DNA of 62,160 nucleotides, counting the filler, from Vannella sp. (taxonomy: Eukaryota), in the NCBI GenBank assembly GCA_023345925.1. It is 6 parts of 6 records of this genome, joined end to end, with 100 filler letters (N's around TTAATTAATTAA, not from the genome) between each part and the next. Parts side by side here need not be neighbours in the genome. Positions count along the whole stretch, not along the records: positions 1 to 27,931 come from JAJQQN010000560.1; 5 more parts are not named here. One strand, 5' to 3'. Of this stretch, positions 3,900 through 58,311 are shown piece after piece. A program made the translations under genes and the position numbers. The notes under the pieces are model-generated. The model saw nothing but the letters and a program-made list of their open reading frames with translations. It had not been told where the DNA came from and searched no databases. Every line of letters starts with the position of its first letter. The first letter of the stretch is position 1.

Positions 3900-4960
3900 C
3901 GAGCAACGCCCGACACGAGAGCTTCCTTATTTGGTCCAGAAGCTGTTGCGCGTTGCATTTCTTGTTTCCATGAACTTCGTCATTCTTTCTTTCTTGGTCC
4001 TGAGATGAAGGAGACCCGTATACAGAGGATGAAAGGGTTCTTCCTGAAGGTGCTTCAGAGCACTGGGACCTCGACAACGGCAGAAGAAACGCCTGACTTG
4101 GTTCCCTCCACTCTCCTCATTCCTGTTTACCGAACATCTGGTTTTTCACGCGGTACTGTGTCACTGGCTGACTCCCGGTGTGCTTACGTCCTCTCTCCTC
4201 CTCACACTTCGAGTGCCCAGTCATAAAGCTCCGTTTTTGAGTTCCCGATGCTCATGCAAGACGAAGGTGGTTCCTCTGAGAGTGTGTCTCTCCGAATACA
4301 ACCCTCTCGAACCTTCCTCCAGCATAGAAGAAGAGAAGAGCCCTCCCACTACTTTGGCTTTCTCAGTCGCCAAGAAGAAAAACGGAGCTTTGGCGGTTAA
4401 CACGTCAACAGTTGGAGATTAGGAGACTCCTGTGAGATAGAGAGATACCCTTCGAGTGAAGGTGACAAAGCAACCGAATAGCTCCCCATTGAACCAAGGT
4501 TCGCTCTTCTCTTCCTTTCCCTTCTTTTTTCGCATTACTTCTTGTTTCTCTTCGTTGGCGGCTCTATCCTCTGTTTGGGGTTCCCTTCTCTTGCCTTTCA
4601 AGTCCTCCTGACTCGTCCCAGCAGTCAGCGTCTCAGACGAGCACCTCAATTTGACCGCCAGTGCCATGGCTTTCCTGATAGGATATCAGTTCTGCTTCAG
4701 ATGTGGAGGGGATAAGATTCCATTCCCTGGCTTGTCCGCAGTACGTAAATGAACGTGTCAAACGGAGCAAAAACGCTCCTTTCTTTGGTTTTGGGCGCAT
4801 TGCAGAATCCAGACTCGTTCTTTGATCGGTAGAATCATTCACTCTTCCATTGAGAGACCTCCACATGCAAGATAGCCGAGCCATCAAACCAACCAGGCGA
4901 GACAATCATAACCCCAACACTCCCCCTTTGTCTTTCTGCTCTTTCAAGCAAGGGGATTAG
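3900..4960. repeat. Diverged tandem duplication, copy 1 (similar to about 5180-6250)
   Basis: Shared blocks AACGCCCGACACGAGAGCT (about 3905/5184), TTACCGAACATCTGGTTT, CATAAAGCTCCGTTTTT and CGTAAATGAACGTGTCAAACGGAG (about 4744/6035), with a period of about 1.28-1.3 kb. Confidence 0.85.
4500..4960 (-). pseudogene. Decayed 3' fragment of the PCIF1-like gene
   Basis: SPGWFDGSAILHVEVSQWK versus LPGWLDDPAILLLEASIWK in PCIF1; PSTSEAEL versus PSTPEAEL; indels break the frame. Confidence 0.75.
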
Positions 4961-5801
4961 TCGGAACTTTTTCTCGGCCCGAGAGTAAGTCTCGGATAGA
5001 AACCTCACAATCCCGTTCATTCCAGTTGATCACGTGTCACCAACCTTGACTTTGTGACATGAGCGGAGAGGTGTCAAGCGCGAAAGGCAAATAGTTGCGG
5101 CTCTCCAGCAGAACATTTAAAGGCAAAACTGTCATTTGGGGAATCTGCGGCCATTGAGAAAAGAGAAAGTTACCGAAAAAGGAAACGCCCGACACGAGAG
5201 CTCCGAAAATGGTCAAAGGGGTTTCCCTGCTTAGTGGCCTGATCAGGTTAAAGAGAAACCTCATTCTTCTTTGGTCTAGGGATGCAGAAGACCCGCTTAC
5301 AGAAGATGAAAGGGTTCTTCCATCAAACTCTTTCAAACGTTGGGAGCACGAGAAGGGAGGAAACACACAACTTGGCTCCCGCCTCTCTACTCGTTCCCGT
5401 TTACCGAACATCTGGTTTCTCTCGCGGTACTGTGAAAGCTCCTGACTCTTGGCAACCTTATGTTCTCTCTCCTCTCCCCACCAGGCCTCCTTTGGACTCA
5501 TAAAGCTCCGTTTTTTGGTTCCTGATGCTCAATGGACAACAACATGCAAGACGAAGAGGCTCGCTTTGACTGTTCTTCACACCCAGGGTCTCTTCCAATC
5601 CTTTCTCCAGCATGGAAGAAGGGAAGATCCTTCGCCTGGGACATTGAAGTCGCTGAAAGTCGGTGCTTGGCCCGTCAACAGTGGAGGCGACTTGACTTCT
5701 GTTTAGTAGAGGCTCTCTTTCCCTAGTAAATGATTAAGAAAGGTGGCAAACCGAACAGGTCTTACGTAGACCAGGAAAGTCTCAAGTCCCTCTCGTTTGC
5801 G

Positions 5802-7259
5802 TTATTTCTTGGTTCTCTTGTTTGGAGGCTCTTTCATCTCCGTGTCTTTGTGTTGTCTTCGCTTGCCTTTGTAGACTCCTCCAGCTCCATCAGCGTCCCC
5901 AAAACCTCTTCCTGCCTTTTGGCGTCGCAAGCGAGCAGCCTCTGATGGAACTGCAAGTGCCATAGCTTTCCTTATGTCTAGTTCTGCTTCGGGCGTTGAG
6001 GGATAGGATTCCATGCCCTGGCTTGTCTGCAGAACGTAAATGAACGTGTCAAACGGAGATTCCCGAAACCGGTCCATTCTTTGGTGCTGGGCGCCATCGC
6101 AGAAGCCATGCTCCTCCTTTGAGATAGAATACTTCACTCTCTTCCATATAGAAGCCTCTAAAAGTAGGATGGCTGGGTCATCAAGCCAACCAGGCAAGAC
6201 AATCACAAACCCAAGACTATTCCTTTGGCTCTCTGCTCTTTCAAGCAAGAGACTGATATGCTCCACTGCTGCCAACATCACTGCAGGAATGAAGGGTGGG
6301 TTCACCTCAAAGTGACCAGAGGGAGGGAGAAAATGAAAGAAGTTATCGACGGCCCCAAAGCACCAATCTGTGTCAGGGAAGGCAGAACAGAATCTGCTGA
6401 AGAAGCTGTTCAGAGGAGAACCAAAGCACTCCATTTTCACCCCGAAGTGATGAGCGAAGGCTTCAAACACCTTCTCCCCACATGCAGCTTGGTAGCCATG
6501 ACCTTGAATACCGTGATAACGGGCAAGGAGAACAAATAAGGAGGCGTGAAACTGCCTCTCAACTTCGTCAGAGAGAGTCTCGGTGCTTGGGCTGGTGTGT
6601 AGTCCACTATGTCGGAGGAAAAGGGTTCGTAACTTGGCGTAATGCTCGTGATTCAGCTTCAGGAGCTTGTTACTGAAGGTCAGATCCATTGTGTGCTTAT
6701 GTCTGATCACCTTCACATGTGCTGGGATGGAGGACTTGCGCAGGTTAGCTTGAAGTAGGATGACCGCTTCTCGGCTCGCTTTAGCAAGCTTATCTGCGAT
6801 CTCTGTGGCTTCTAAGGAAGGGATAGAAGCACGAACTAAGTCTTCTATCAGTGTTTGATCTCTAAGACCATTACAGGGGAGAACTGGATCCCTGAGGGCA
6901 TCAGGAGGAGCCAGCTGAAGCTCTTCGAACTTTGCGCGTCCTAACCACCGTTCGAAGGCCATGATAGGAGGGACCAGTCCACTTTGGGTTCGAACCAACT
7001 GGAAGAAGTGTTTGCTGAGCTTCAGAGTCGACTGCATACGAAAGAACTCCTCTTGGGGAGACACAAACGGGCGCGTCACCTCCTCCACACTCTCTGGAAG
7101 CTCCACCAAGGCCGAGTTCCAGATCTGCTTCTGTGTTCTGCCTCTCCTATCCACCTCTACCACGCTACCTATCCCCGCAGGCTCTATTTGGCTGTTCAAA
7201 TGGAGAGGCTTCGTTGTTAGGGCGGTCTTCCTCTGTTTCGGTGTTAAGCGCGGTCGCAT
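5802..7259 (-). CDS. PCIF1: mRNA cap-specific adenosine N6-methyltransferase, PCIF1/CAPAM-like
   Basis: LLARY...GYQAA...ECFGSPLN...FCSAFPDTD..FG...HFEVNPPF: the PCIF1 methyltransferase signature with catalytic NPPF. No WW domain is visible. Confidence 0.85.
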   Translation of the reverse strand: MRPRLTPKQRKTALTTKPLHLNSQIEPAGIGSVVEVDRRGRTQKQIWNSALVELPESVEEVTRPFVSPQEEFFRMQSTLKLSKHFFQLVRTQSGLVPPIMAFERWLGRAKFEELQLAPPDALRDPVLPCNGLRDQTLIEDLVRASIPSLEATEIADKLAKASREAVILLQANLRKSSIPAHVKVIRHKHTMDLTFSNKLLKLNHEHYAKLRTLFLRHSGLHTSPSTETLSDEVERQFHASLFVLLARYHGIQGHGYQAACGEKVFEAFAHHFGVKMECFGSPLNSFFSRFCSAFPDTDWCFGAVDNFFHFLPPSGHFEVNPPFIPAVMLAAVEHISLLLERAESQRNSLGFVIVLPGWLDDPAILLLEASIWKRVKYSISKEEHGFCDGAQHQRMDRFRESPFDTFIYVLQTSQGMESYPSTPEAELDIRKAMALAVPSEAARLRRQKAGRGFGDADGAGGVYKGKRRQHKDTEMKEPPNKRTKK

Positions 7260-7317
7260 TCAAGAATGAACTCCAAATTGGAAGTAACAAAGAGACTCCA
7301 GGATGAACTCCACTCAT

Positions 7318-7439
7318 TCGAGAGAACAAAACCCACGAGGGAAGGAGAGAGCCCCCAAATGAAATGTTTGTGTTGGTTGTCCTGATGACCTCCATCTCTT
7401 CAGGATAAGCTTTTGGGCCGATTCTATTTTTTCACTTTT
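7318..7439. ncRNA. Conserved structured non-coding element, copy 1 (candidate small RNA gene or shared leader)
   Basis: 36 nt at 7381-7416 are identical to 39411-39446, with similar flanks and a CCTGA/TCAGG hairpin. RNA identity is unproven. Confidence 0.4.
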
Positions 7440-7659
7440 CGAAGGCCGAACCCCTCCCCTGGAGGAGCTATCTGTCCTGGAAGCCTAGTTCTCATGACCC
7501 TGATGAGGGAAAGCTCTGGTGGATGAACTAACTCCTTCGTGCTACACTCAACGACCAGATCCGCTGGAGAAAGAAGCTTCATTCTGCTCAAGAGGAGGTG
7601 GGAAAGGAACCAAAGAGGCTGGGTGGGTGGGCAGGTTAAGTGTGTCCAATGTTAAGGAC

Positions 7660-10600
7660 TCAACCAAAAGCGAGATAAGAGCCGGGACGATTGGGACGAT
7701 TGAATTCAGTCACATCCATGAGGATCATAGTTTGTGCAGCTTTCTTGCGCCTGGCGAGGATCCGTACATGGATCTCAATGATGATGACTCCCACCATTAT
7801 AATTACAATTGCTGTCGCTACCAGAGCCACGGATATGTATGCGAGGACGTAGCTGCGGGTGACTGAGTTACAGGGGTCTTTGGCCTCTTCTTGGTTGAGA
7901 CCCGTCAAGAGGAGCGCGAAATTGGTAAAATGATCCGTAATACCACAAAGTTGGCCGTTCTTGGGGACTAAGCATATATCCTGACATTCCCAGTTGTTCC
8001 TTTCGTTCAGGAATCCTAAACATTGACTCTGCTCCCATTAGATTAGTTCTCTCAAGACACTCACAAGCTCGCACTCACTTCTGTTTGATTAGGAGTAAAG
8101 CAGATCTCGACTTCCCCTTTCAAAGGCACTTCTGTCCCGTTCACATCTACCAATATCACGGTGATGACTGGTGTGCTCACTACATTGGAAGGCGGGAGAT
8201 CTCCTGGACAGATGGGTAAGTCTTAGCGAACTTGTTTGGTTTGTGTGATCTCACCTGGTACTGCTGGCGTTATTATGATGTTTGTTCCAGGAGGATATAG
8301 TTGCCCTGTACTCTTTGGAACAGTGACCGTGCCCACTGCCACTCCCTGAGGGTTTAGAACGACCAAAACGGCTCCCTTGGTTATATCCAAAAGGATGGTA
8401 CCATTTTGTTTGCAAGTTGTGCAAGTGAGAGAAGGATTGGGCGAAGGAGGTTGGGAGGAACTGACGGAAGGAATCCGAGAGATGGAAACCAAAGGTGAAG
8501 TAGAAACAGACTTTTCAACAGTTTGGGATCTGGTATGGCTTTGCGATACAATCAATGAATCAGAGGAGCTTGAGCTCAAGCTGGGAGCTTTGCTTGAACT
8601 TTGGGACAAAGAAGGAGTGTCGCTTGGTGGCCGCTGAGGTGGACGCTGAGGCGGCCGAACAGACCCCAATCTAACATTCGACACAGATGTTGACTGGCTT
8701 CCAGAGAAGGTGGTTGTGGGAGTTTCACTTTGTGACGGGGAATCTGACCCACTTCCTGTGCAAGAAGAACTTGGGGTCTCACTGGGAGAGGATGATGGCA
8801 CGACGCTATCCGTCACACTAACTGTTTTCGTTGACGAAAGTGAAGACGCTCCGCTCACTGAGCCGGATAAAGATGCTGTTCCAGTCGCCGATTCTGAAAG
8901 TGTCTGACTATTTGAGATCGAAGAACTCTCACTGCTTGAGCTCGACGGGCTATCACTTGAAGAAGCAGTGGTACTGAGGGTAATACTTGGTGTCTCCGTT
9001 GAAGTGGGCGATGGCGTTCTGCTACCTGAGGAGGATAAAGAAGCTGTTGCACTGCTCGAGTCCGACGGGGTCTCACTGGCAGATCCAGACTTCGAAAGCG
9101 TTGCACTATTTGAGCCTGAAGCACTCTCACTGGAAGAGAGAGTGATGCTGGGCGTTGTGCTGGATGTCTCTGTTGGAGATGTTGATGAAGTCTCACTTAC
9201 TGACTGAGAGGAACTAAGCGAAGGAGTTTCGCTCCGTGTGATTGTTGAAGAAAGAGTTTCAGTGGGAGAGAAGGATGGTGTGCTACTACTTGTCACAGTT
9301 ACTGTCTCCGTTGGAGTGAGCGTTGGTGACCCACTCGTCGAGGAGGATGAAGAAGAAGTTGCACTCGTTGATGTTGAAGGAGTCGCAGTGTTTGAGCTGG
9401 AAGAGGATTCACTGGAACTTGCTGAAGGAGATGTACTGGGTGTTGCACTTGGCGTCTCTGATGAAGTGGCTGATACAGAAGAACTGGATGACCCGGTCAT
9501 CGAGATGGTAGGCGACGAGGTTTGAGACTCCAAGTAAGAAGAACTGGCGGTCACCGATTCGGAGGGGCTCGTTGTTACTGAGGGCGAAGGAGACTCGCTT
9601 GAGGTCAGTGAATTGGTGGCGGTTTGTGTAGGAGAAGTTGTTTGAGACGATTACGAAGAGGAAGTCACTGTAACGCTGGACGAACTGCTTGCGGAGAAGG
9701 AGTGGTGCTTGTCGAGGGAGAAACAGTCTGTGTCGAAGACGGGCTGGCCGTGGTCGTCGAGGTTGCGGTTGGAGAGTTTGTGGAGGTTACAGATGAACTT
9801 GCTGTGTTACTGCCAGAGGGAGAGGAAGTGGTTGATGTTGATGACGACGAAGAGGGAGTCACTGTTCCACTGGGCGAACTACTTTCTGAGGATGAAGAAG
9901 AAGGAGTTGCGCTTGTGGAAGGAGAAACAGTCCCTGTCGGAGATGAGCTGGCCGTGGTCGTCGAGGTTGCAGTTGGAGAACTCGTTGCTGTGGAACTACC
10001 AGAGGAAGAGAGAGTGAGTGATACTGACAATGACGAGGAAGGGGTCTCTGTAACGCTGGATGAACTGCTTGCGGAGGGTGTGGAAGAAGGGGTGGTGGTT
10101 GTCGAGGGAGAAACAGTCCCTATCGGAGATGAGCTGGCCGTGGTCGTCGAGGTTGCGGTTGGAGAACTCGTGGAGGTCACAGATGAACTTGCTGTGTTAC
10201 TACCAGAGGGAGAGGAACTGGCCGATGTTGATGACGATGAAGAGGGAGTCACTGTTCTACTGGGCGAACTACTTTCTGAGGATGAAGAGGAAGGAGAAAC
10301 AGTCCCTGTCGGAGACGGGCTAGCCGTGGTCGTGGACGTTGCGGTTGGAGAACTCGTTGCTGTGAAACTACCAGAGGGAGAGGGTGATAATGACGAAGAA
10401 GAGGTCTCTGTAACGCTGGACGAACTGCTTGTCGAGGATGTGGAAGAAGGAGTGGGGCTAGTCGAGGAAGAGACAGTCCCTGTCGGAGACAGGCTGGCTG
10501 TGGTCGTCAAGGTTGTGGTTGGAGTCACAGATGGGCTTGCTGTGGAACTACCAGAGGAAGAGGAACTGGGCGATGCTGACAATGATGAAGAAGGCGTCCC

Positions 10601-12438
10601 TGTAACGCTGGATGAACTACTTGCTGAAGGCGTAGAGGAAGGAGTGGAGCTTCTTGAAGGAGAAACAGTCACTGACGGAGATGAGCTGGCCGTGGTGGTC
10701 GATGTTGCGGTTGGGGAATTTGTCGAGGTCATAGATGAACTTGCTGTGGAACTACCAGAAGAAGAGGAACTGGGTGATGTCGAAGGCGTCTGGCTCGATG
10801 AGGCTGTGGCGGAAGCAGTGCGACTGGGCGTTGGAGAGTTGGTAGGAGTGCGGGAAGAAGAGCACGAGAAACAAAACTGGAACAGGCGGAGTGATGGCAT
10901 TTCTACGTCTTCTACAAATTCGACTTCCCCTGCCTGAGCTACTCGAGTAACCCCAGGGGTTGATAGACCAGATGCTCCGGTCGTACCCGCCACTACATTA
11001 GTAGAGAGTCCGTTGAAGTTTGTCAAAATGTGGCCACCTCCTCCCCCTCCGCCGCCTCCTCCACCAGACTTCACGCTGTTTCCATTACCGCCCTTAGCCT
11101 CCGCTGTCCAAGCCCCCGCTGGGTCTGAGCACGAAAAGAGAGCGACAACAGTCCCGCCTGCACCCCCTGTTGTGTGTGAGTTTGTGTCCCGCCCTTCCAC
11201 TGCTTCACACTCACCTCCTCCTCCACCCTTGTTACTGGAACCAGAAAGTGGCTCTGGAAGGTCACCGTTTGCAAGGATCTTAGTAAGAGCGGTGCTTGAA
11301 CTCGTTCCGGTGTGGATATAAACCATCCCACCGCCGTCTCTCCCTGAGCAACTGTTCGCGTTATTTGTTTGCCATCCAGCTCCTCCTCCTCCACCTATGA
11401 GACGGTTAGGACAGAGCGTAGAGAAGTTGCAACGTGAAACTCACCCATGAAAAGCCTCGTCCCGTTTGGAACTGGACCGGCTCCTAAACCAGGCTCTCCA
11501 CTGACTGCTGTGGCACGGAGACCATCACCTCCTGATCCCCGATTGGATCCTCCTCCCCCTCCATTATTAAACGCGTTTCCTCCTCCTCCAGCATTTCCTG
11601 GTGCTCCACGACCAAGCTCCCACTCACGAGGATACGTTGCCAGTTGGAAAATAGCAGGACGCGATGGCATACCGATGAATCCTTCTCCTTTTCTCGCGTT
11701 AAAGCCAACCACTGTTGGATCTCCAAGTAGCTGAGCAAAGGTAACGCTATCCGCACTTGTTGCTGCAGGCTGGTCCTTGTTGTTCGCTGCTCGAAAGCCG
11801 ATTCCAGTCACATCAAACCCGATGTTTCCGGTGATACCGGAGCTCACAACCAGATCGAACGTTACCAACGGGAGGATGCCTCCTTTGGCGTTATCCCAAG
11901 CTGGAGGTTTCAAAGTGGCGGCGACAGTGCTTGTCCAACAGGCAGGAAAGCTTATCACTTGGAACCTCTCAGACTTGCCTGTTGAGAGGCCTGAAGTGAA
12001 GTTAAGCGTGAGAGGGAGGTCAAGGATAAGCTCCACGTAAGGACTGCCCTTGTCTGTTGTTCCGTTCACGTGATTGAACTCGTAAAGGCCCACCAGGCCG
12101 AGGCCTCCAGGTAAGTAACCAAACCCTCCTCCAGGGGTACCATCTCCATACGAGTTGGAGTTGGAGTTATCGATGGTGCCTCCTTGCATCTGGATGATCA
12201 TAACGGGTCCCTTAATAGTGAGAACGCCATTCACAGTTACGCTGTTTCTAGTGAGGTCGGTTGAGTACCCAGCATAGTGTCCGAACGACATGGCGCCAAG
12301 GGAGCATGACGCCTGAGGTGTACAGGCCCCCATCACCGCCGTGCAGTGAAGGAGCACAAGGAAGACCGACGCAAACCGCAAAGGTATCAAACAGGAACGT
12401 GAGAGGAAATAAGTTCTTCCCCTGTTACATCCCTCCAT
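7660..12438 (-). CDS. Large cell-surface protein: signal peptide, Gly-rich bacterial-like head, S/T mucin stalk, GAIN/GPS motif, one TM helix. The frame is disrupted near 9650-9700, so it may be a pseudogene.
   Basis: ORFs 11395-12438, 9665-11326 and 8223-9554. Spliced C-terminal exons give WECQDICLVPKNGQLCGITDHFTNFALLL, then the TM YVLAYISVALVATAIVIIMVGVIII and RRKK. Confidence 0.7.
9660..10800 (-). repeat. Imperfect ~180-nt coding tandem repeats (Ser/Thr/Pro stalk)
   Basis: Recurrent SPTATSTTTASSSP.GTVSPS units, seen as repeated GCCGTGGTCGTCGAGGTTGC on the + strand. Confidence 0.85.
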
Positions 12439-12800
12439 CGCTCAGGGTGACTGGGTAGGTCAAAGGCAAGAGAAAGTGTCCAAGAATGCCTCCGAAACGA
12501 CCAGTTAAATTCTTTTTCTCATTCTGTTCCCGAATTATTGAACTTCTCCAACCTTGTGGAACACTGCGACTTGAGAACGGCGTTTTGCCTTTTATTCACG
12601 ATTCAATGAAGATGCTCAATTAGGATAACTTTCCTTCCTTGTCTTTTTTCGGACGGTTGCTTCTTTGTGTCTCCACACTTTGTTCCGGACCTGAAACCGT
12701 ACAAAGAATAGAATGATCTCGCGTAACCAGTTCACGATGACAGCCCGCCCTCTGCGTCTATGAAGCAAATCACTCTCACTCGAGGCATTAGCGCCAAACT

Positions 12801-13091
12801 TTAGTTTCCACCGCGACCGCGGGGTTGTTGAAGGTTGACTTGGACCTTTTGAGGAGCAGACAGATGAGCTTTAGGCTCGACGTGGGGCTCATAAGTGCTG
12901 GGGGTGGCTTTGGTGGCCAAAGCAGCGGCTTCGTCAACAACAACCTCGCGCTTGGGTTCTGGCTTGGTATCGTGGCTTCCAGGGCTTCTGGCCAAAGGAA
13001 CATGATGGGATGTCTTATCAGGCACTCGCTTACCACCCACTTTGATGGCGGGAGTGCGTCCAGACAGAGCTTCAGGTACGTGGTCCGCCAT
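12801..13091 (-). CDS. DAP: Death-associated protein 1 (DAP/DAPL1) family small protein
   Basis: MADHVPEALSGRTPAIKVGGKRV matches the family motif PAVKAGGMRI, and C-terminal LQQPRG matches IQQPRK. About 96 aa. Confidence 0.7.
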   Translation of the reverse strand: MADHVPEALSGRTPAIKVGGKRVPDKTSHHVPLARSPGSHDTKPEPKREVVVDEAAALATKATPSTYEPHVEPKAHLSAPQKVQVNLQQPRGRGGN

Positions 13092-13161
13092 GGGAGGAGA
13101 CACGGGAAGCAAGGAGAATGACTTTATGGAAGGAGAGGAAGGGTTATTGAAAGTATCAGTC

Positions 13162-15156
13162 TTAGAAGAGCATGATAGCCAAGAGCGACAATGTAGCGAC
13201 AAGAGAGGACGCGGAATTGGGCTTCACATAGACAGGGAAAGGAACAGCAATGGGAACGGGGTTGGGGACGGGTACCGGGATTGGGATGTTGACAGGCACA
13301 GCAATGGGGACCAAGATGTTGTTGGGCACGGGAATAGGCAAAACAGTGGCGGAGGGGATGGGGAGACGGGTTCCAGCGGGGGTGTTGGAAGGGTTCTTGG
13401 TGGCGCTGCGGGTTTTAGTCTGGCTCGATCCAGAGCTACGGCTGGGACGGGATGTACGAGAGACAGTAGCAGTGACAGTTGGTGTGACCGAGTTAGCTCT
13501 GTTCACTTGACTGCGGAACGCCACAGAAAGGATACCAATAGTGCGAACGTCTCCGCAAGCTTTGTTGACATCGCCGTCGAGACTTCCACCAAACATGTTC
13601 GCGCTCACACAGCCAAACTTTCCATCCTCGTCAATGGCGACCACGCAAAGCTCATCCAGTCTCGTAAGGAGGCTAGGGAGAACAGTGAAGCAGACGGTTC
13701 CTGCGAGGCTTGGTTGAGCGGGAGCTCCGTCAGGCTCTGTAGCTGTGAAGTTCAGAAGAACAGCTTCCCGGGTCAGGTTGCCAGCAGGAGAGGGGAGGGT
13801 CACATTGGTCTCCTCCACAGCGAGAACCACAGTGCCAGGGCGGAAGGCATCCGTAAGGAATCGGGCAAAAGTGTTGGCTGTGGTTGTGGTGATGAAGGGA
13901 AGTGGACTGTTCGACACCAATCCAGAGACAGCGATGGATGGAGTGATCAAGGGAGTTACCGTTTGACTGACTGTGGAATTCGTAGGAGCTACAGGGGACG
14001 TCCCAATCGAGGGTGACTGAGAGACAGAGGTCGTGGTCGAAGGGGAGACGGAGATAGAGGGAGTAACTGAGGGTGACTCCGAGATAGTTGGAGTAATCGA
14101 GGGCGACACAGAGATAGTTGGAGTAATCGAGGGCGACTCAGAGATGGAAGGAGTAATCGAGGATGTAACAGATCCAGAAGGAGTATCCGAGGGCGACACA
14201 GAGCTGGAAGGAGTAATCGAGGGTGTCTCAGAGCTGGAGGGAGTAATTGAAGGCGATACAGAGGCCGTAGGAGTACCCGTGGGGGTATCAGAGCCGGTTG
14301 GTGTGCCCGAAGGTGTCTCAGAAATAGTAGCAGTAGCTGAGGGTGTCACTGAAGTAGTGGGAGTGTACGAAGGGGTTTCGGAGATAGTTGCCGTGGACGA
14401 GGGTGTCTGAGAGATGGTGGGGGACACGGTGGGCGTATCAGAAGGCGTGGAGGCACTGGGTGTCATCGTGACGGAAGCGGTAGCACTGGGTGTCATCGTC
14501 ATGGATACGGTAGCCGTGGGTGTCTTGGAGACGTTCGGAGGAGCGCTGTACGTGAGGTTCTTTAGAGATACAGTTTGATCCCCCAAGGAGGCATCGAGGA
14601 ATAATGTCAACTCGAGAGCACCAAACGAAGCAAAGGAGCAGCTTCCAACAAAGCTACTGTAAAGAGCCTGAGTACCATTTCCAGCAGCTTGAGGACCAAA
14701 AGTGCAGTTACCACCTTTTCCATCAAAGTAGGCCAGGGAGAACATCACGCCCGCAGTTTGAGAGAGGACGACTTCAAAGTAGCGCCCGTCTGAAGGCATA
14801 TCGGTGAGGACAAATCCACCCAAGCCGGTGACGTTGAGAGAAGTACTGTTATCGTTACCGTCGTACTGGAGCAGCAGAGTAGCCTTTGTTCCATTAGCAG
14901 CCGTGAACTGGAACTCGGAAGTTACGTTATTGTACGCAAATGTGGTTCTTCCACCAGAGGTAGAAAGAGTCGCATCTCTTCCACACGCAATGGGGTCTTT
15001 GCAGCCGTTTCCAGAGAAGGAAGAGGAGATGGACGTTCCGTTAGTGGAGACCCTCTGACGAGTACCAACGGTAAAGGTATCAATGGGAACCTGAGTAAAG
15101 TTGGCACCATACGCTAAGCCTACAAACACGACGAGAACGAGGAAACACGATCTCAT
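13162..15156 (-). CDS. Secreted, probably GPI-anchored Ser/Thr/Pro-rich surface glycoprotein
   Basis: Signal peptide MRSCFLVLVVFVGLAYG, many N-x-S/T sites, 10-aa S/T/P repeats, PIPVP repeats and a hydrophobic C-terminus SASSLVATLSLLAIMLF. Confidence 0.8.
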   Translation of the reverse strand: MRSCFLVLVVFVGLAYGANFTQVPIDTFTVGTRQRVSTNGTSISSSFSGNGCKDPIACGRDATLSTSGGRTTFAYNNVTSEFQFTAANGTKATLLLQYDGNDNSTSLNVTGLGGFVLTDMPSDGRYFEVVLSQTAGVMFSLAYFDGKGGNCTFGPQAAGNGTQALYSSFVGSCSFASFGALELTLFLDASLGDQTVSLKNLTYSAPPNVSKTPTATVSMTMTPSATASVTMTPSASTPSDTPTVSPTISQTPSSTATISETPSYTPTTSVTPSATATISETPSGTPTGSDTPTGTPTASVSPSITPSSSETPSITPSSSVSPSDTPSGSVTSSITPSISESPSITPTISVSPSITPTISESPSVTPSISVSPSTTTSVSQSPSIGTSPVAPTNSTVSQTVTPLITPSIAVSGLVSNSPLPFITTTTANTFARFLTDAFRPGTVVLAVEETNVTLPSPAGNLTREAVLLNFTATEPDGAPAQPSLAGTVCFTVLPSLLTRLDELCVVAIDEDGKFGCVSANMFGGSLDGDVNKACGDVRTIGILSVAFRSQVNRANSVTPTVTATVSRTSRPSRSSGSSQTKTRSATKNPSNTPAGTRLPIPSATVLPIPVPNNILVPIAVPVNIPIPVPVPNPVPIAVPFPVYVKPNSASSLVATLSLLAIMLF
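14040..14290 (-). repeat. 30-nt coding tandem repeats (ITPSxSxSPS)
   Basis: GGAGTAATCGAGG recurs at 30-nt intervals (about 14090-14222). Confidence 0.85.
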
Positions 15157-15332
15157 AAGCCACGGAAGAAGGAAAAACTGCCAGCAAAACGACGACGTTG
15201 GAGATCATTTTCCCAAAGCGGGCGTTTTTGAAAATCTCCTTCACGTCATATGTTCAAAATCACACTGTGGGAGATGTGGTATTAAGTGGCATGATTTTTG
15301 CGTATGTCTATTTATTTTGTTGCCCTTCTGGC

Positions 15333-36885: not shown

Positions 36886-39260
36886 TTAGGGGCTGCTGAG
36901 TCCTTCTAAAGTGGAAATTATGCTCTCAAAAGTGGGCCTGGCGCTGGGATCCTCGTTCCAGCAGGAAGTCATGAGATTGACCCATTCTAAGGGCCAATCG
37001 GGTTGCACTTGGGGACGGAGGGATTGAGTGCCAACTGCAAAGACGATCTGGAATGGTGGCATGCCTAGGAGGAGGTTAGAGTGGAAGGATGGGAAGGGAA
37101 TACTGACCGGGGAAGGGATCAGCGCGAGCGAACATCTCCCAAACCACAACTCCGAACCCATAGACGTCTGCTTTGGTTGTGTAGCGTTCGTTACGGAGTA
37201 CTTCAGGAGCTGTCCAAGAAGGAGTACCGCATGCTGTCATCGTTTGGTTATGCGCAGTGATTCTTGAAAGGCCAAAGTCGCACACTTTCACTCTCCAGTG
37301 AGAGTCAATCAAGAGATTGTGTGATTTCAGGTCGCGGTGGACGATGGGAGGGCTTTGCTTATGCAGGTAATTCATTCCCCGGACAGTGTCTAAACAGATT
37401 GATTTGATTCTCCGGCGACTGAAACTTGAGTCTGGTTGATGTAACATTCGATACAAGCTGCCGTTGGACATGTACTCCATGCAGATGCACACCTCCCGTC
37501 CGGTTTGGGAGATACCCAGGTATTGGAGGATGTTTGGATGGCGGAGAGACCGCATGAGACCAGCTTCCTGTCGGAACTCATTCATGAGCTTCTCCGTCAT
37601 GGCAGAGGGAAGCATTTTGACTGCAATCTTCGTGCCTCTCCATTTGGCAGAGTAGATCACTCCAAAGCTGCCCTTTTCAATCTGTTTCATGCCCTTGATT
37701 TCGCTGTAAGGAATGAAGTTCGGATCAGTCCCCTCGTTAAGGTCGCCGTTGAGGACCATGTCGTAAAGATCCCTTTGGGGAACAGTCGGACGCAAAGCCT
37801 CTGAGATTAACCGCTTGTTCTGGAAACAAATGATGCCAACCCCCACCAACAGTACGCAGACAATCAGAATACCCACGGCCAAAGCAGCCCACATGAACCC
37901 AGGAGAGTGGGGTTGACTTGCCACCACGGAATAAGTGGGCGGCGGGGAAGGGGTAGTAGGAGAAGGCCCAGGAGACCGTTCGAATTGGAATGATGAAGAG
38001 GGAATAGGCGAGGGACTCGGGAGGGCAATACCATTAAAGTGATATTCTTCCTCTGCAAGAGAGAAGACAACGCCATTCTGACTAAATCCAACACTGACGT
38101 TCCGCGAACCTTCGTAGATAAAGTCCGTTACATCAACACATATAACAGTGTGGCTGTCCACAAACACTGTGTGAAGGACCGGGATCTCTCCAAACCTGAC
38201 CAGACAAGTCAGTCTTGCAAACGAGGAAACCGTATTACTCACTTGCAAATCATCGCTGAAGAGTAAAAGAATCCGCTCCCTGACAGCGTGACATTGACTC
38301 CTCCAGCAGAGGGACCCTGAGCAGGAGTGAAAGAGTCAATAGTGGGGAGAATGTACCAATAGAAGTATCCATCACCGATGACCTCCATGGAGGACCCCAA
38401 CAGCTCGAAGTTGTCAGAGAATGGGATCTGGCGTGAAGGGACCTGACAATACAGCTGACTGGAGTCGACATAAGTCGCATTGATGATCTGCAACGAGTCA
38501 GGGAGCGCCTTTGTGGGAAGGCAGGGCTCACAATATCTCCAAAGCTGCAGTAGAACGTCTCTGATGGTAGGAAGTTGGTTCCTAACACTGTCATCGGAAT
38601 CGAGGTGTTCACAGGCGCTGAAGTGGGAAAAAAGCGGGTCAACGTGGGCGAGACTGCTCTCCTGTCAGCTTCATTGCCTCTGAGCAGCCAGGAGGGACCT
38701 ACCAGGACCATATCCCAGCTTGATAGTAACGTTTGACACGCAGAGAAGGTCGGTAGCCCAGATCTTGAAGAGGTTCATCTCCCCGTACTTGTAAAAGGGC
38801 CATCCACCATTGTAGAGGGTTCCTTGGAGAGGGATGGTTTGCAAGCAGTTAAGGCATTCACATGTTTGAGAGGCTGGAGGACGGGTGAGTGAGGGAGGCA
38901 AGGAGGGAAGGCGTTCTTACCATTGAGAGCGGGAAGTAAGTTGATGATGGACCCGTCGAGGGTTGCCAGGGCTTCCTTGTTGACTTGCGTTCGGTTGTGG
39001 CAACCAAAGGTCATGTAGAGAACGATATCCACCGTTCTACAGACGCTCCCAGTGGGGATGGGATCCATAAACTCTCGCGATCCCTTTTGCCAATGGGAGG
39101 TGTCGTTGTTGCACGCCAACGAAGGGAAGAAGGTGGAACCGGTACAATCACCATTCACACAAGACGTGGTTGTACCATCAAAAATCACCTGCGTCTCCAC
39201 AAAGTCCCCCTGGCCCCCGTGGAGAAGGACCAGAAGCAGCAACCCCATCCACACGCGCAT
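36886..39260 (-). CDS. Receptor-like TKL kinase with extracellular IPT/TIG domains, multi-exon
   Basis: Signal peptide MRVWMGLLLLVLL, IPT (PTIDSFTPAQGPSAGGVNVTLSGSGF), a TM helix, and kinase motifs HRDLKSHN, DFG, CGTPSWTAPE and CWNEDPSARPTF. Confidence 0.9.
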
Positions 39261-39350
39261 CTCACTAGTACAAGCTGAGAATGATTCATTAGACTTCCAC
39301 TTTAGCTTTATTGAGGACATCTTCTCGGCCAGTGGCTTTATGAGAAGAAA

Positions 39351-39469
39351 TCGTGAGAAAATCCACGAGTGAAGGGGAAGAGGGGGCAGAACCCGTGTTG
39401 CGTGGCTTGCCCTGATGACCTCCATCTCTTCAGGATAAGCTTTTGGACTGATTTCATTTTTTCACTTTT
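39351..39469. ncRNA. Conserved structured non-coding element, copy 2
   Basis: 39411-39446 is identical to 7381-7416; the ATTTTTTCACTTTT and CCACGAG flanks are shared. Confidence 0.4.
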
Positions 39470-39491
39470 GGGCTGTCCCAAACAAGGGGAA

Positions 39492-48357: not shown

Positions 48358-48587
48358 CTCTCCCTAATCTTACCCTTCACTCGTTGAGTTTCTCTTGGCA
48401 AAAAGGTTCCACATCTTGCCACCTACCAGAGATGACAAGCGCACACTTACATGCCTGGTGGAGATTCACCTTTTTCGCGATATAGAATCAGACTTGTCCC
48501 CACTGAAACTGCCTTGGCGACCCTCAAAGAGTTGGTTGGTAGAAGAGTATTTACGAGAAGAGAGAACCAGATGCATTGCCAGTCCCA

Positions 48588-56386: not shown

Positions 56387-58153
<1,767 letters not shown>

Positions 58154-58311
58154 GGCGTGGCTTGTCACGAAAGAATAACTCTGCCTACAAAAAATAAACC
58201 AAACATTTAATTTACTTCCGCAAGAGAAGGATTTCAGAAAAAAGAGAGGTTTCTCAGTTCTGTTGTCCCAAAATGATTTGCTTTGGACCTTTATTTGTTG
58301 GCTTGGTGCGG

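Follow-up and report, generated by a model that had tools for sequence, protein, structure and literature searches.

The 62,160 nucleotides of Vannella sp. DNA analysed here (the window) come from a compact eukaryote, as six contigs with N-linkers between them, and contain three copies of an element that is real, high in copy number and previously undescribed. We tentatively read it as a family of snRNA-type small-RNA genes on the plus strand, each copy with a predicted upstream element of its own, an interpretation that falls just short of an even chance. A literature search of incomplete coverage returned no account of such an element, nor of spliced-leader (SL) trans-splicing in this host group.

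The element was first noticed as a 36-nt sequence said to be identical at 7381-7416 and 39411-39446, and all 36 bases do agree. The two copies (copies 1 and 2) lie on different contigs, as claimed, with N-linkers between them. No other site in the window matches the 36-mer at three or fewer mismatches, and none of 100 shuffled sequences held a match. The shared stretch covers 72 nt at 89% identity (7368-7439 and 39398-39469). The other features attributed to both copies were also recovered: the second block occurs in each, at an offset of exactly 32030; the A/T-rich flank is shared, its T-rich block being identical at 14 of 14 positions; the U-A/U-G stem variant is present at 7380/39410; and the distances to the minus-strand gene starts, put at about 120-150 nt, measure 122 nt for PCIF1 and 151 nt for the kinase gene. 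The predicted hairpin exists, with a main stem of 12 pairs rather than 6-8.

The second block recurs once more, on the opposite strand at 48374-48394, a copy missed by the original prediction. Searching the window with the second-block pattern gave these three sites and none in 100 shuffles. The third block stands 16 nt from a contig start and is matched by blastn at E 2e-4, by nhmmer only at E 0.19. Its contig breaks off at the counterpart of 39391, just short of the expected conserved body, as would be expected of a collapsed repeat. All three copies are intergenic, and copy 3 sits behind the 3' end of an AI-2E-family gene (stop 48588). The description of the element as lying upstream of a gene thus applies to copies 1 and 2 and not to copy 3 (two of three copies), and the position of copy 3, together with the copy number, weakens the suggestion of a shared promoter or 5'UTR module. 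No further full copy was found in the window, either by a covariance model built from the two copies (next best E 2.6) or by nhmmer. The features are collected in Table 1.

Table 1. Parts of the element and neighbouring genes, by position in the window.
Feature	Position	Strand	Remarks
Copy 1, left block with ACCCACGA	7325..7345	+	predicted upstream sequence element; 1 mismatch to DUSE-type 8-mer
Copy 1, spacer	7351..7367	+	sequence free, length kept; 1/17 same as copy 2, ungapped
Copy 1, main stem-loop	7374..7411	+	contains most of the invariant 36-mer
Copy 1, A-T6-C-A-C-T4 block	7426..7439	+	identical in copy 2; single-stranded in folds
Copy 1, 3' hairpin, weak, 4-pair	7438..7450	+	fold
Copy 2, left block	39355..39375	+	pattern match
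Copy 2, spacer	39381..39397	+	most listed family substitutions and indels here
Copy 2, stem-loop, 12 pairs, loop GACCTCCATCTC	39404..39441	+	one C.A mismatch, two G.U
Copy 2, A-T6-C-A-C-T4 block	39456..39469	+	sequence comparison
Copy 2, 6-pair 3' hairpin (TTTGGG / CCCAAA)	39467..39482	+	lies 9 nt from contig end
Copy 3, left block (48394-48374) and third, unrelated spacer	48358..48394	-	contig end there
PCIF1-family gene	5802..7259	-	PF12237 E 1e-48, ATG 7259; no link to element shown
Multi-exon receptor-type protein kinase gene	37076..39260	-	Pkinase; signal-peptide-like start 39260; no link shown

Read on the plus strand, the unit consists of the left block, a variable spacer, a 12-pair stem-loop, an A-T6-C run and a 3' hairpin of varying sequence; in copy 2 it spans ~39354 to ~39490, about 130 bases. 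Identity between copies 1 and 2 along the unit is 19/26 (left block, measured over 7325-7350), 1/17, 9/13, 36/36, 5/9 and 14/14, against 12/55 and 5/22 in the flanks. The mismatches are clustered far beyond permutation expectation, a run of 36 arising in two of 100,000 permutations and 16 mismatches within 17 nt in none. All three copies keep the left block and have three different spacers. The A-T6-C-A-C-T4 block may represent an Sm-like site or a Pol III stop. Behind 39472, the family consensus drawn from loose contig ends likewise completes a hairpin with the TTTTGGG arm, as judged by eye. As a separate observation, the CACGAG at 39364-39369 forms a second inverted repeat with the spacer end (39392-39397) as it reads in the family, across a 22-nt purine-rich gap; 39393 is T in most contigs, the C>T change being found in 17-23 contigs per run.

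The size of the family was estimated from contigs of three DNA sequencing runs that contain the organism, aligned to the copies at 80% likeness; all three belong to one study and may be the source of the window itself, and the search that listed them listed no RNA run with the organism. Copy 1 attracted 147, 96 and 100 contigs, nearly all at 7365-7439, of which 16, 15 and 12 leave it at 7439 with a flank agreement of 0.43-0.51. Sixteen contigs of one run leaving at a single edge into unlike flanks imply at least 16 loci. The 270 nt around copy 2 attracted 275, 160 and 150 contigs, with 105, 81 and 78 fitting only partly. Summed depth reaches 7,600-15,300 on the core, highest at 39411-39446 (the figure is given for 39420-39437), and 600-1,500 on the left block, compared with about 10 on the neighbouring kinase exon; these sums give an order of magnitude and not a copy number, as overlapping contigs and other organisms add up. 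The family probably has hundreds of copies, which is consistent with three in 62 kb. No contigs cover 7198-7357 or 39267-39347, and such holes prove nothing.

The same contigs define the edges and the variation of the family. Its left edge falls at 39353-39357 in 17 of the 24 listed contig pieces; to the right of 39469 many contigs share ~20 more bases, which form the hairpin with the TTTTGGG arm (by eye). Contigs differ from copy 2 at 2 to 18 positions, and linked diagnostic bases at 39406, 39407 and 39410 separate two subfamilies. At two contig joints a truncated copy is followed by a new left block, so that the family includes truncated and tandem copies. Unit length is kept, 20 of 23 listed pieces showing a net change of 3 nt or less relative to copy 2, a count that omits a 24th piece lacking the left block, is biased by the 80% filter and may include the same locus from more than one run. 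The core carries no listed variants in the copy 2 alignment, a listing that we do not use as proof of invariance, since its counterpart for copy 1 was blank where contigs did differ. In three contigs of one run (X2) the left block and spacer give way behind 39386 to a different hairpin-forming sequence, which may belong to another RNA gene that shares this upstream element, or may mark a truncated copy. Outside these runs, JGI metagenomes gave 15 loci for the central 18-mer, viral contigs gave eight matches, and GTDB gave no loci for it and seven for a gapped pattern; none of the 15, eight or seven showed flank similarity, as expected of chance matches.

Based on this layout, we propose that each unit is a small-RNA gene of the snRNA type. 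In this model SNAPc would recognise the left block, with its CCCAC-type motif, as an upstream sequence element, and the spacer would matter only for the distance it sets. From a start site somewhere between about 39395 and 39424, transcription would yield an RNA of 70-95 nt made up of a stem-loop, a U-run and a terminal hairpin. The U-run may serve to bind an Sm or Lsm ring, or else to stop Pol III, and the invariant stem-loop may offer a surface for docking or pairing, like that of SmY RNA. Since the promoter would lie outside the transcript, the family would have spread by duplication at the DNA level, with some truncated copies. The original prediction of a multicopy structured element, possibly a small RNA, therefore survives in altered form, on the plus strand and with the second block as upstream element, at nearly even probability.

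The left block resembles published upstream elements, which are given as [AT]CCCA[AT]AA for Dictyostelium in the available part of PMC3188802 and as ACCCAYAW, TCCCAHCA and GNCCCAYW for other protists in that of PMC8287931. The three copies show 1, 2 and 3 mismatches in 8 to the DUSE-type motif, which starts 34-43 nt ahead of the conserved body and 57-63 nt ahead of the loop. In Dictyostelium the DUSE is described as lying about 60-63 nt before the start (parts of PMC7919456 and PMC3188802), a spacing that would place the start inside the loop; this is a weak point of the snRNA-type reading. The copy number, inferred to be in the hundreds, exceeds Class I and SmY gene counts and also argues against it. 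As the original prediction had remarked, the Sm site is non-canonical: RAT3-6G is absent from either strand of the three copies, and copies 1 and 2 have AT6C on the plus strand. Sm sites in Hydra include U-runs followed by C, according to the portion of PMC7986045 at hand.

Rfam returned three chance rows for the window (E up to 5) and none and one for the copies (E up to 10). Its models for spliceosomal snRNAs, U3, U7, SRP and 5S gave no match, no snRNA gene was found by it in the window, and ARAGORN reported 0 tRNA genes. Likenesses to U1, U2, U5, U7 and 5S were considered and dropped for want of an Rfam match. A more specific possibility, which we regard as somewhat unlikely, is a new class of Sm-type snRNA in a unicellular discosean amoeba, with hundreds of individually promoted genes between protein genes, exceeding every described Class I or SmY family by an order of magnitude. 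Its boldest form, an SL or SmY-like component of an unrecognised amoebozoan trans-splicing system, would be a long shot even within that class.

The strand is not decided by folding, as single folds, consensus fold and variants disagree. The copy 1 hairpin (7370-7415) folds at -14.5 kcal/mol on the plus strand (z -3.2) and -9.2 on the minus strand, that of copy 2 at -14.5 and -13.7; in 46-nt windows, chosen around the hairpin, z is -2.9 and -3.2 on the plus strand and -2.7 and -1.7 on the minus strand. Single-copy folds of the body favour the plus strand in four of four comparisons; for the consensus of the two copies the minus strand comes out more stable (-13.0 vs -9.6 kcal/mol). The variants, by reading, are split: the constant G39409 and, in copy 2, G39404 keep the pair only on the plus strand, C39410 and C39393 only on the minus strand. 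Changes in the 5' arm are found in contigs without compensation. Folds of the whole unit (131-nt windows, z -1.2 to +0.8) and of 91-93 nt (z -1.1 to 0.0) are no better than those of shuffles. The case for the plus strand rests instead on the layout: a CCCAC-type motif, then a spacer fixed in length and free in sequence, then the stem-loop, the U-run and the terminal hairpin. A minus-strand hairpin at 39351-39368 was rejected as a family feature, as it uses flank bases private to copy 2.

The original prediction had favoured an SL RNA on the minus strand, with a leader ending in GGAG, a donor GU in stem-loop I and a later U-tract. The element is multicopy, as SL genes are (PMC6053224, in part), there is a GU within the stem-loop, and the consensus fold favours this strand. 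The donor, GTCATC, is nevertheless atypical for the host: the four mapped ProRS introns begin with GTACGG, GTACGC, GTATGT and GTAGGT, with A at +3 in four of four where the candidate has C. This comparison uses spliced mapping of ProRS, a regex survey of donor hexamers being too noisy. The proposed U-tract differs in all three copies (GGGTTTTG, GGATTTTC and GAGTTTC), no conserved Sm site is seen, and the most variable segment would fall within the stretch directly behind the donor. Conservation extends 25-45 nt beyond the proposed leader start on its 5' side, and no edge thus marks a 5' end. SL RNAs with diverged Sm sites exist, according to the available text of PMC6053224, which leaves this reading lowered and still conceivable; we judge it very unlikely.

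An SL layout on the plus strand fits the geometry better. The GT at 39402-03 stands 54 nt before the AT6C run, which lies between two hairpins, within the 20-60 nt window used by SLIDR (PMC7986045 and PMC6053224, parts), and is kept in most contigs, but the sequence ahead of it is variable and the leader would be the most variable part. By the same sources SL RNA genes resemble the element in being multicopy and differ from it on both strands, through this variable leader on the plus strand and the atypical donor on the minus strand.

The main rival to the snRNA-type reading, with an appreciable minority share of the probability, is a non-autonomous mobile element (a Helentron-associated HINE, a MITE or a SINE-like element). 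An autonomous partner elsewhere in the genome would copy it, the conserved blocks would be enzyme recognition sites and the hairpins signals in single-stranded DNA or transcript. High dispersed copy number, sharp edges and unrelated flanks fit this, as do subfamilies with linked diagnostic bases, contigs at 2 to 18 differences from copy 2, and truncated and tandem copies. HINE, DINE-1 and HLE2 elements are likewise short, non-coding and high in copy, with truncated and tandem members, and HINEs and HLE2 have a 3' palindrome after a T-rich block (from parts of PMC4067079 and PMC11417382), which is seen here at 39467-39482 of copy 2 and in the family loose ends. In copy 2 there is an imperfect 10-nt terminal inverted repeat with one mismatch (39353-62 / 39456-65).

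The ends fit less well. No exact inverted repeat longer than 6 nt joins the ends, copy 1 has none, and no terminal repeat is kept across copies, whereas HINEs are described with subTIRs of 12-15 bp and a flanking T at each end (PMC4067079, part) and HINE / HLE2 elements with 11-18 bp terminal repeats and insertion between T and T (PMC4067079 and PMC11417382, parts); here the left flank consensus is A-rich on the plus strand. The original prediction had itself listed the end of a MITE or SINE as an alternative, with target-site duplications (TSDs) as a check. TTCGA is directly repeated at both edges of copy 1 (7317-7321 and 7438 onward), a possible TSD, although a 5-nt repeat arises by chance in 4% of cases per copy; copy 2 has none, its right flank being short. 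This alternative keeps a real, if lesser, likelihood. Among MITE features, we find no TIR and the 5-nt direct repeat in one of two copies. Among SINE features, there is no tRNA-, 5S- or 7SL-derived head (ARAGORN, Rfam) and no A-rich tail in the copies or contig flanks, and the direct repeat that might count as a variable-length TSD is present in one of two copies, at the same 4% chance for each. Two further features argue against a mobile element: conservation peaks in the middle of the unit, and the spacer varies freely in sequence and not in length.

The intergenic position of all three copies and the fixed spacing are also compatible with a DNA-level cis element (a protein-binding module, insulator, origin or promoter module) at many intergenic sites, in which the inverted repeats would be binding sites for dimeric proteins; the inverted partner of CACGAG and the strand-neutral folding point the same way. 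A run of 36 invariant bases is long for a binding site, the copies are not oriented alike to their neighbours (copy 3 lies behind a gene end) and the neighbours are unrelated, and we consider a cis element improbable. Sm site, box C and box D serve here as general terms for consensus sequences. An expanded short box C/D-type RNA would take TGATGA (39413-18) as box C and CTGA (39448-51) as box D. Both words are present in copy 2, and SNORD18 aligned to copy 1, at an E value of 7.9 that equals chance; the box C lacks its purine and falls within the main stem, the box D word is CCGA in copy 1, there is no terminal stem, and only 29 nt separate the boxes, all of which makes this reading extremely unlikely. 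Other explanations together hold a small residue of the probability. Membership in the SL RNA, MITE, SINE and C/D snoRNA classes fails on at least one tested feature each.

By analogy, the element is closest to the Class I and SmY gene families, yet it appears to belong to neither on the features tested. As in the dictyostelid Class I and Class II RNAs, multicopy amoebozoan small-RNA genes stand behind a CCCA-type upstream element and often have a T-run after them, as here (PMC7919456 and PMC3188802, available parts). The Class I motif CCTTACAGCCAA, 11-12 nt by the 5' stem in the excerpt of PMC3188802, is absent from copies 1 and 2. Going by the same two partial sources, Class I RNAs have a 5'/3' terminal stem where the element has a long internal stem-loop, a motif-to-body distance of about 60 nt against 34-43 nt here, and 18-39 genes against what we infer to be far more copies; in these excerpts, Class I is not found outside Dictyostelia. 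SmY RNA shares two stem-loops around a U-rich site, the first strongly conserved, and several copies (PMC11229312, in part). This layout is present in copy 2 and the family flanks and weak in copy 1. The site here is the non-canonical AT6C, there is no Rfam match, nematodes belong to a different supergroup, and SmY has 12 genes, as opposed to probably hundreds here (PMC11229312, same excerpt).

The window carries eukaryotic genes, among them PCIF1, CAF1B, RhoGEF, Med23, kinases and ProRS, with GT-AG introns of 50-61 nt (spliced mapping of ProRS). The ProRS piece (56387-57082) is 61-80% identical to five environmental proteins (P0001-P0005) and ~50% to named ones. In a FastTree phylogeny of this one gene (the 231-residue query and 60 of the 120 listed matches) it groups with P0001-P0005 (support 1.0), in an enclosing clade that includes Clydonella (0.82), amid amoebozoan names. 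On this protein sequence the host likely belongs to Amoebozoa, with a weak lead to Discosea; the clade with P0001-P0005 is an uncharacterised, apparently widespread protist lineage. On the minus strand, 32 nt before the ProRS start, a 31-nt GT...AG segment with a strong pyrimidine tract (58185-58215, by eye) is shorter than the mapped introns and may be a short 5'UTR intron or an unpaired acceptor.

The gene beside copy 2 had been called an IPT receptor kinase; it carries a Pkinase domain, and IPT/TIG reaches only E 0.008, below the Pfam cut-off. An ATG in the copy 2 loop begins a run of 55 codons that shares its frame with the kinase start (minus strand, 39260-39425), which is probably chance, since the copy 1 ATG is out of frame with PCIF1. 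Near copy 1, a degenerate ~1.28 kb tandem duplication (3984-4952 and 5261-6249, 76-93% in pieces) includes the 3' part of PCIF1, and long Ser/Thr-rich repeat ORFs with a transmembrane-like end (7660-11326, minus strand) describe a mucin-like surface protein gene adjoining the copy.

If the element is mobile, it would be a new short high-copy family with a central conserved part, of modest interest, and would account for contig breaks, two of the ten internal contig ends in the window touching a copy. Class I RNAs are tied to multicellularity in social amoebae in the available part of PMC7919456. If the copies are RNA genes, social amoebae would not be the only group to have lineage-specific snRNA-like families behind an upstream element, and the left block would provide a promoter tag for finding all snRNA-type genes in this lineage, including telomerase RNA by the strategy outlined in the accessible text of PMC8287931.
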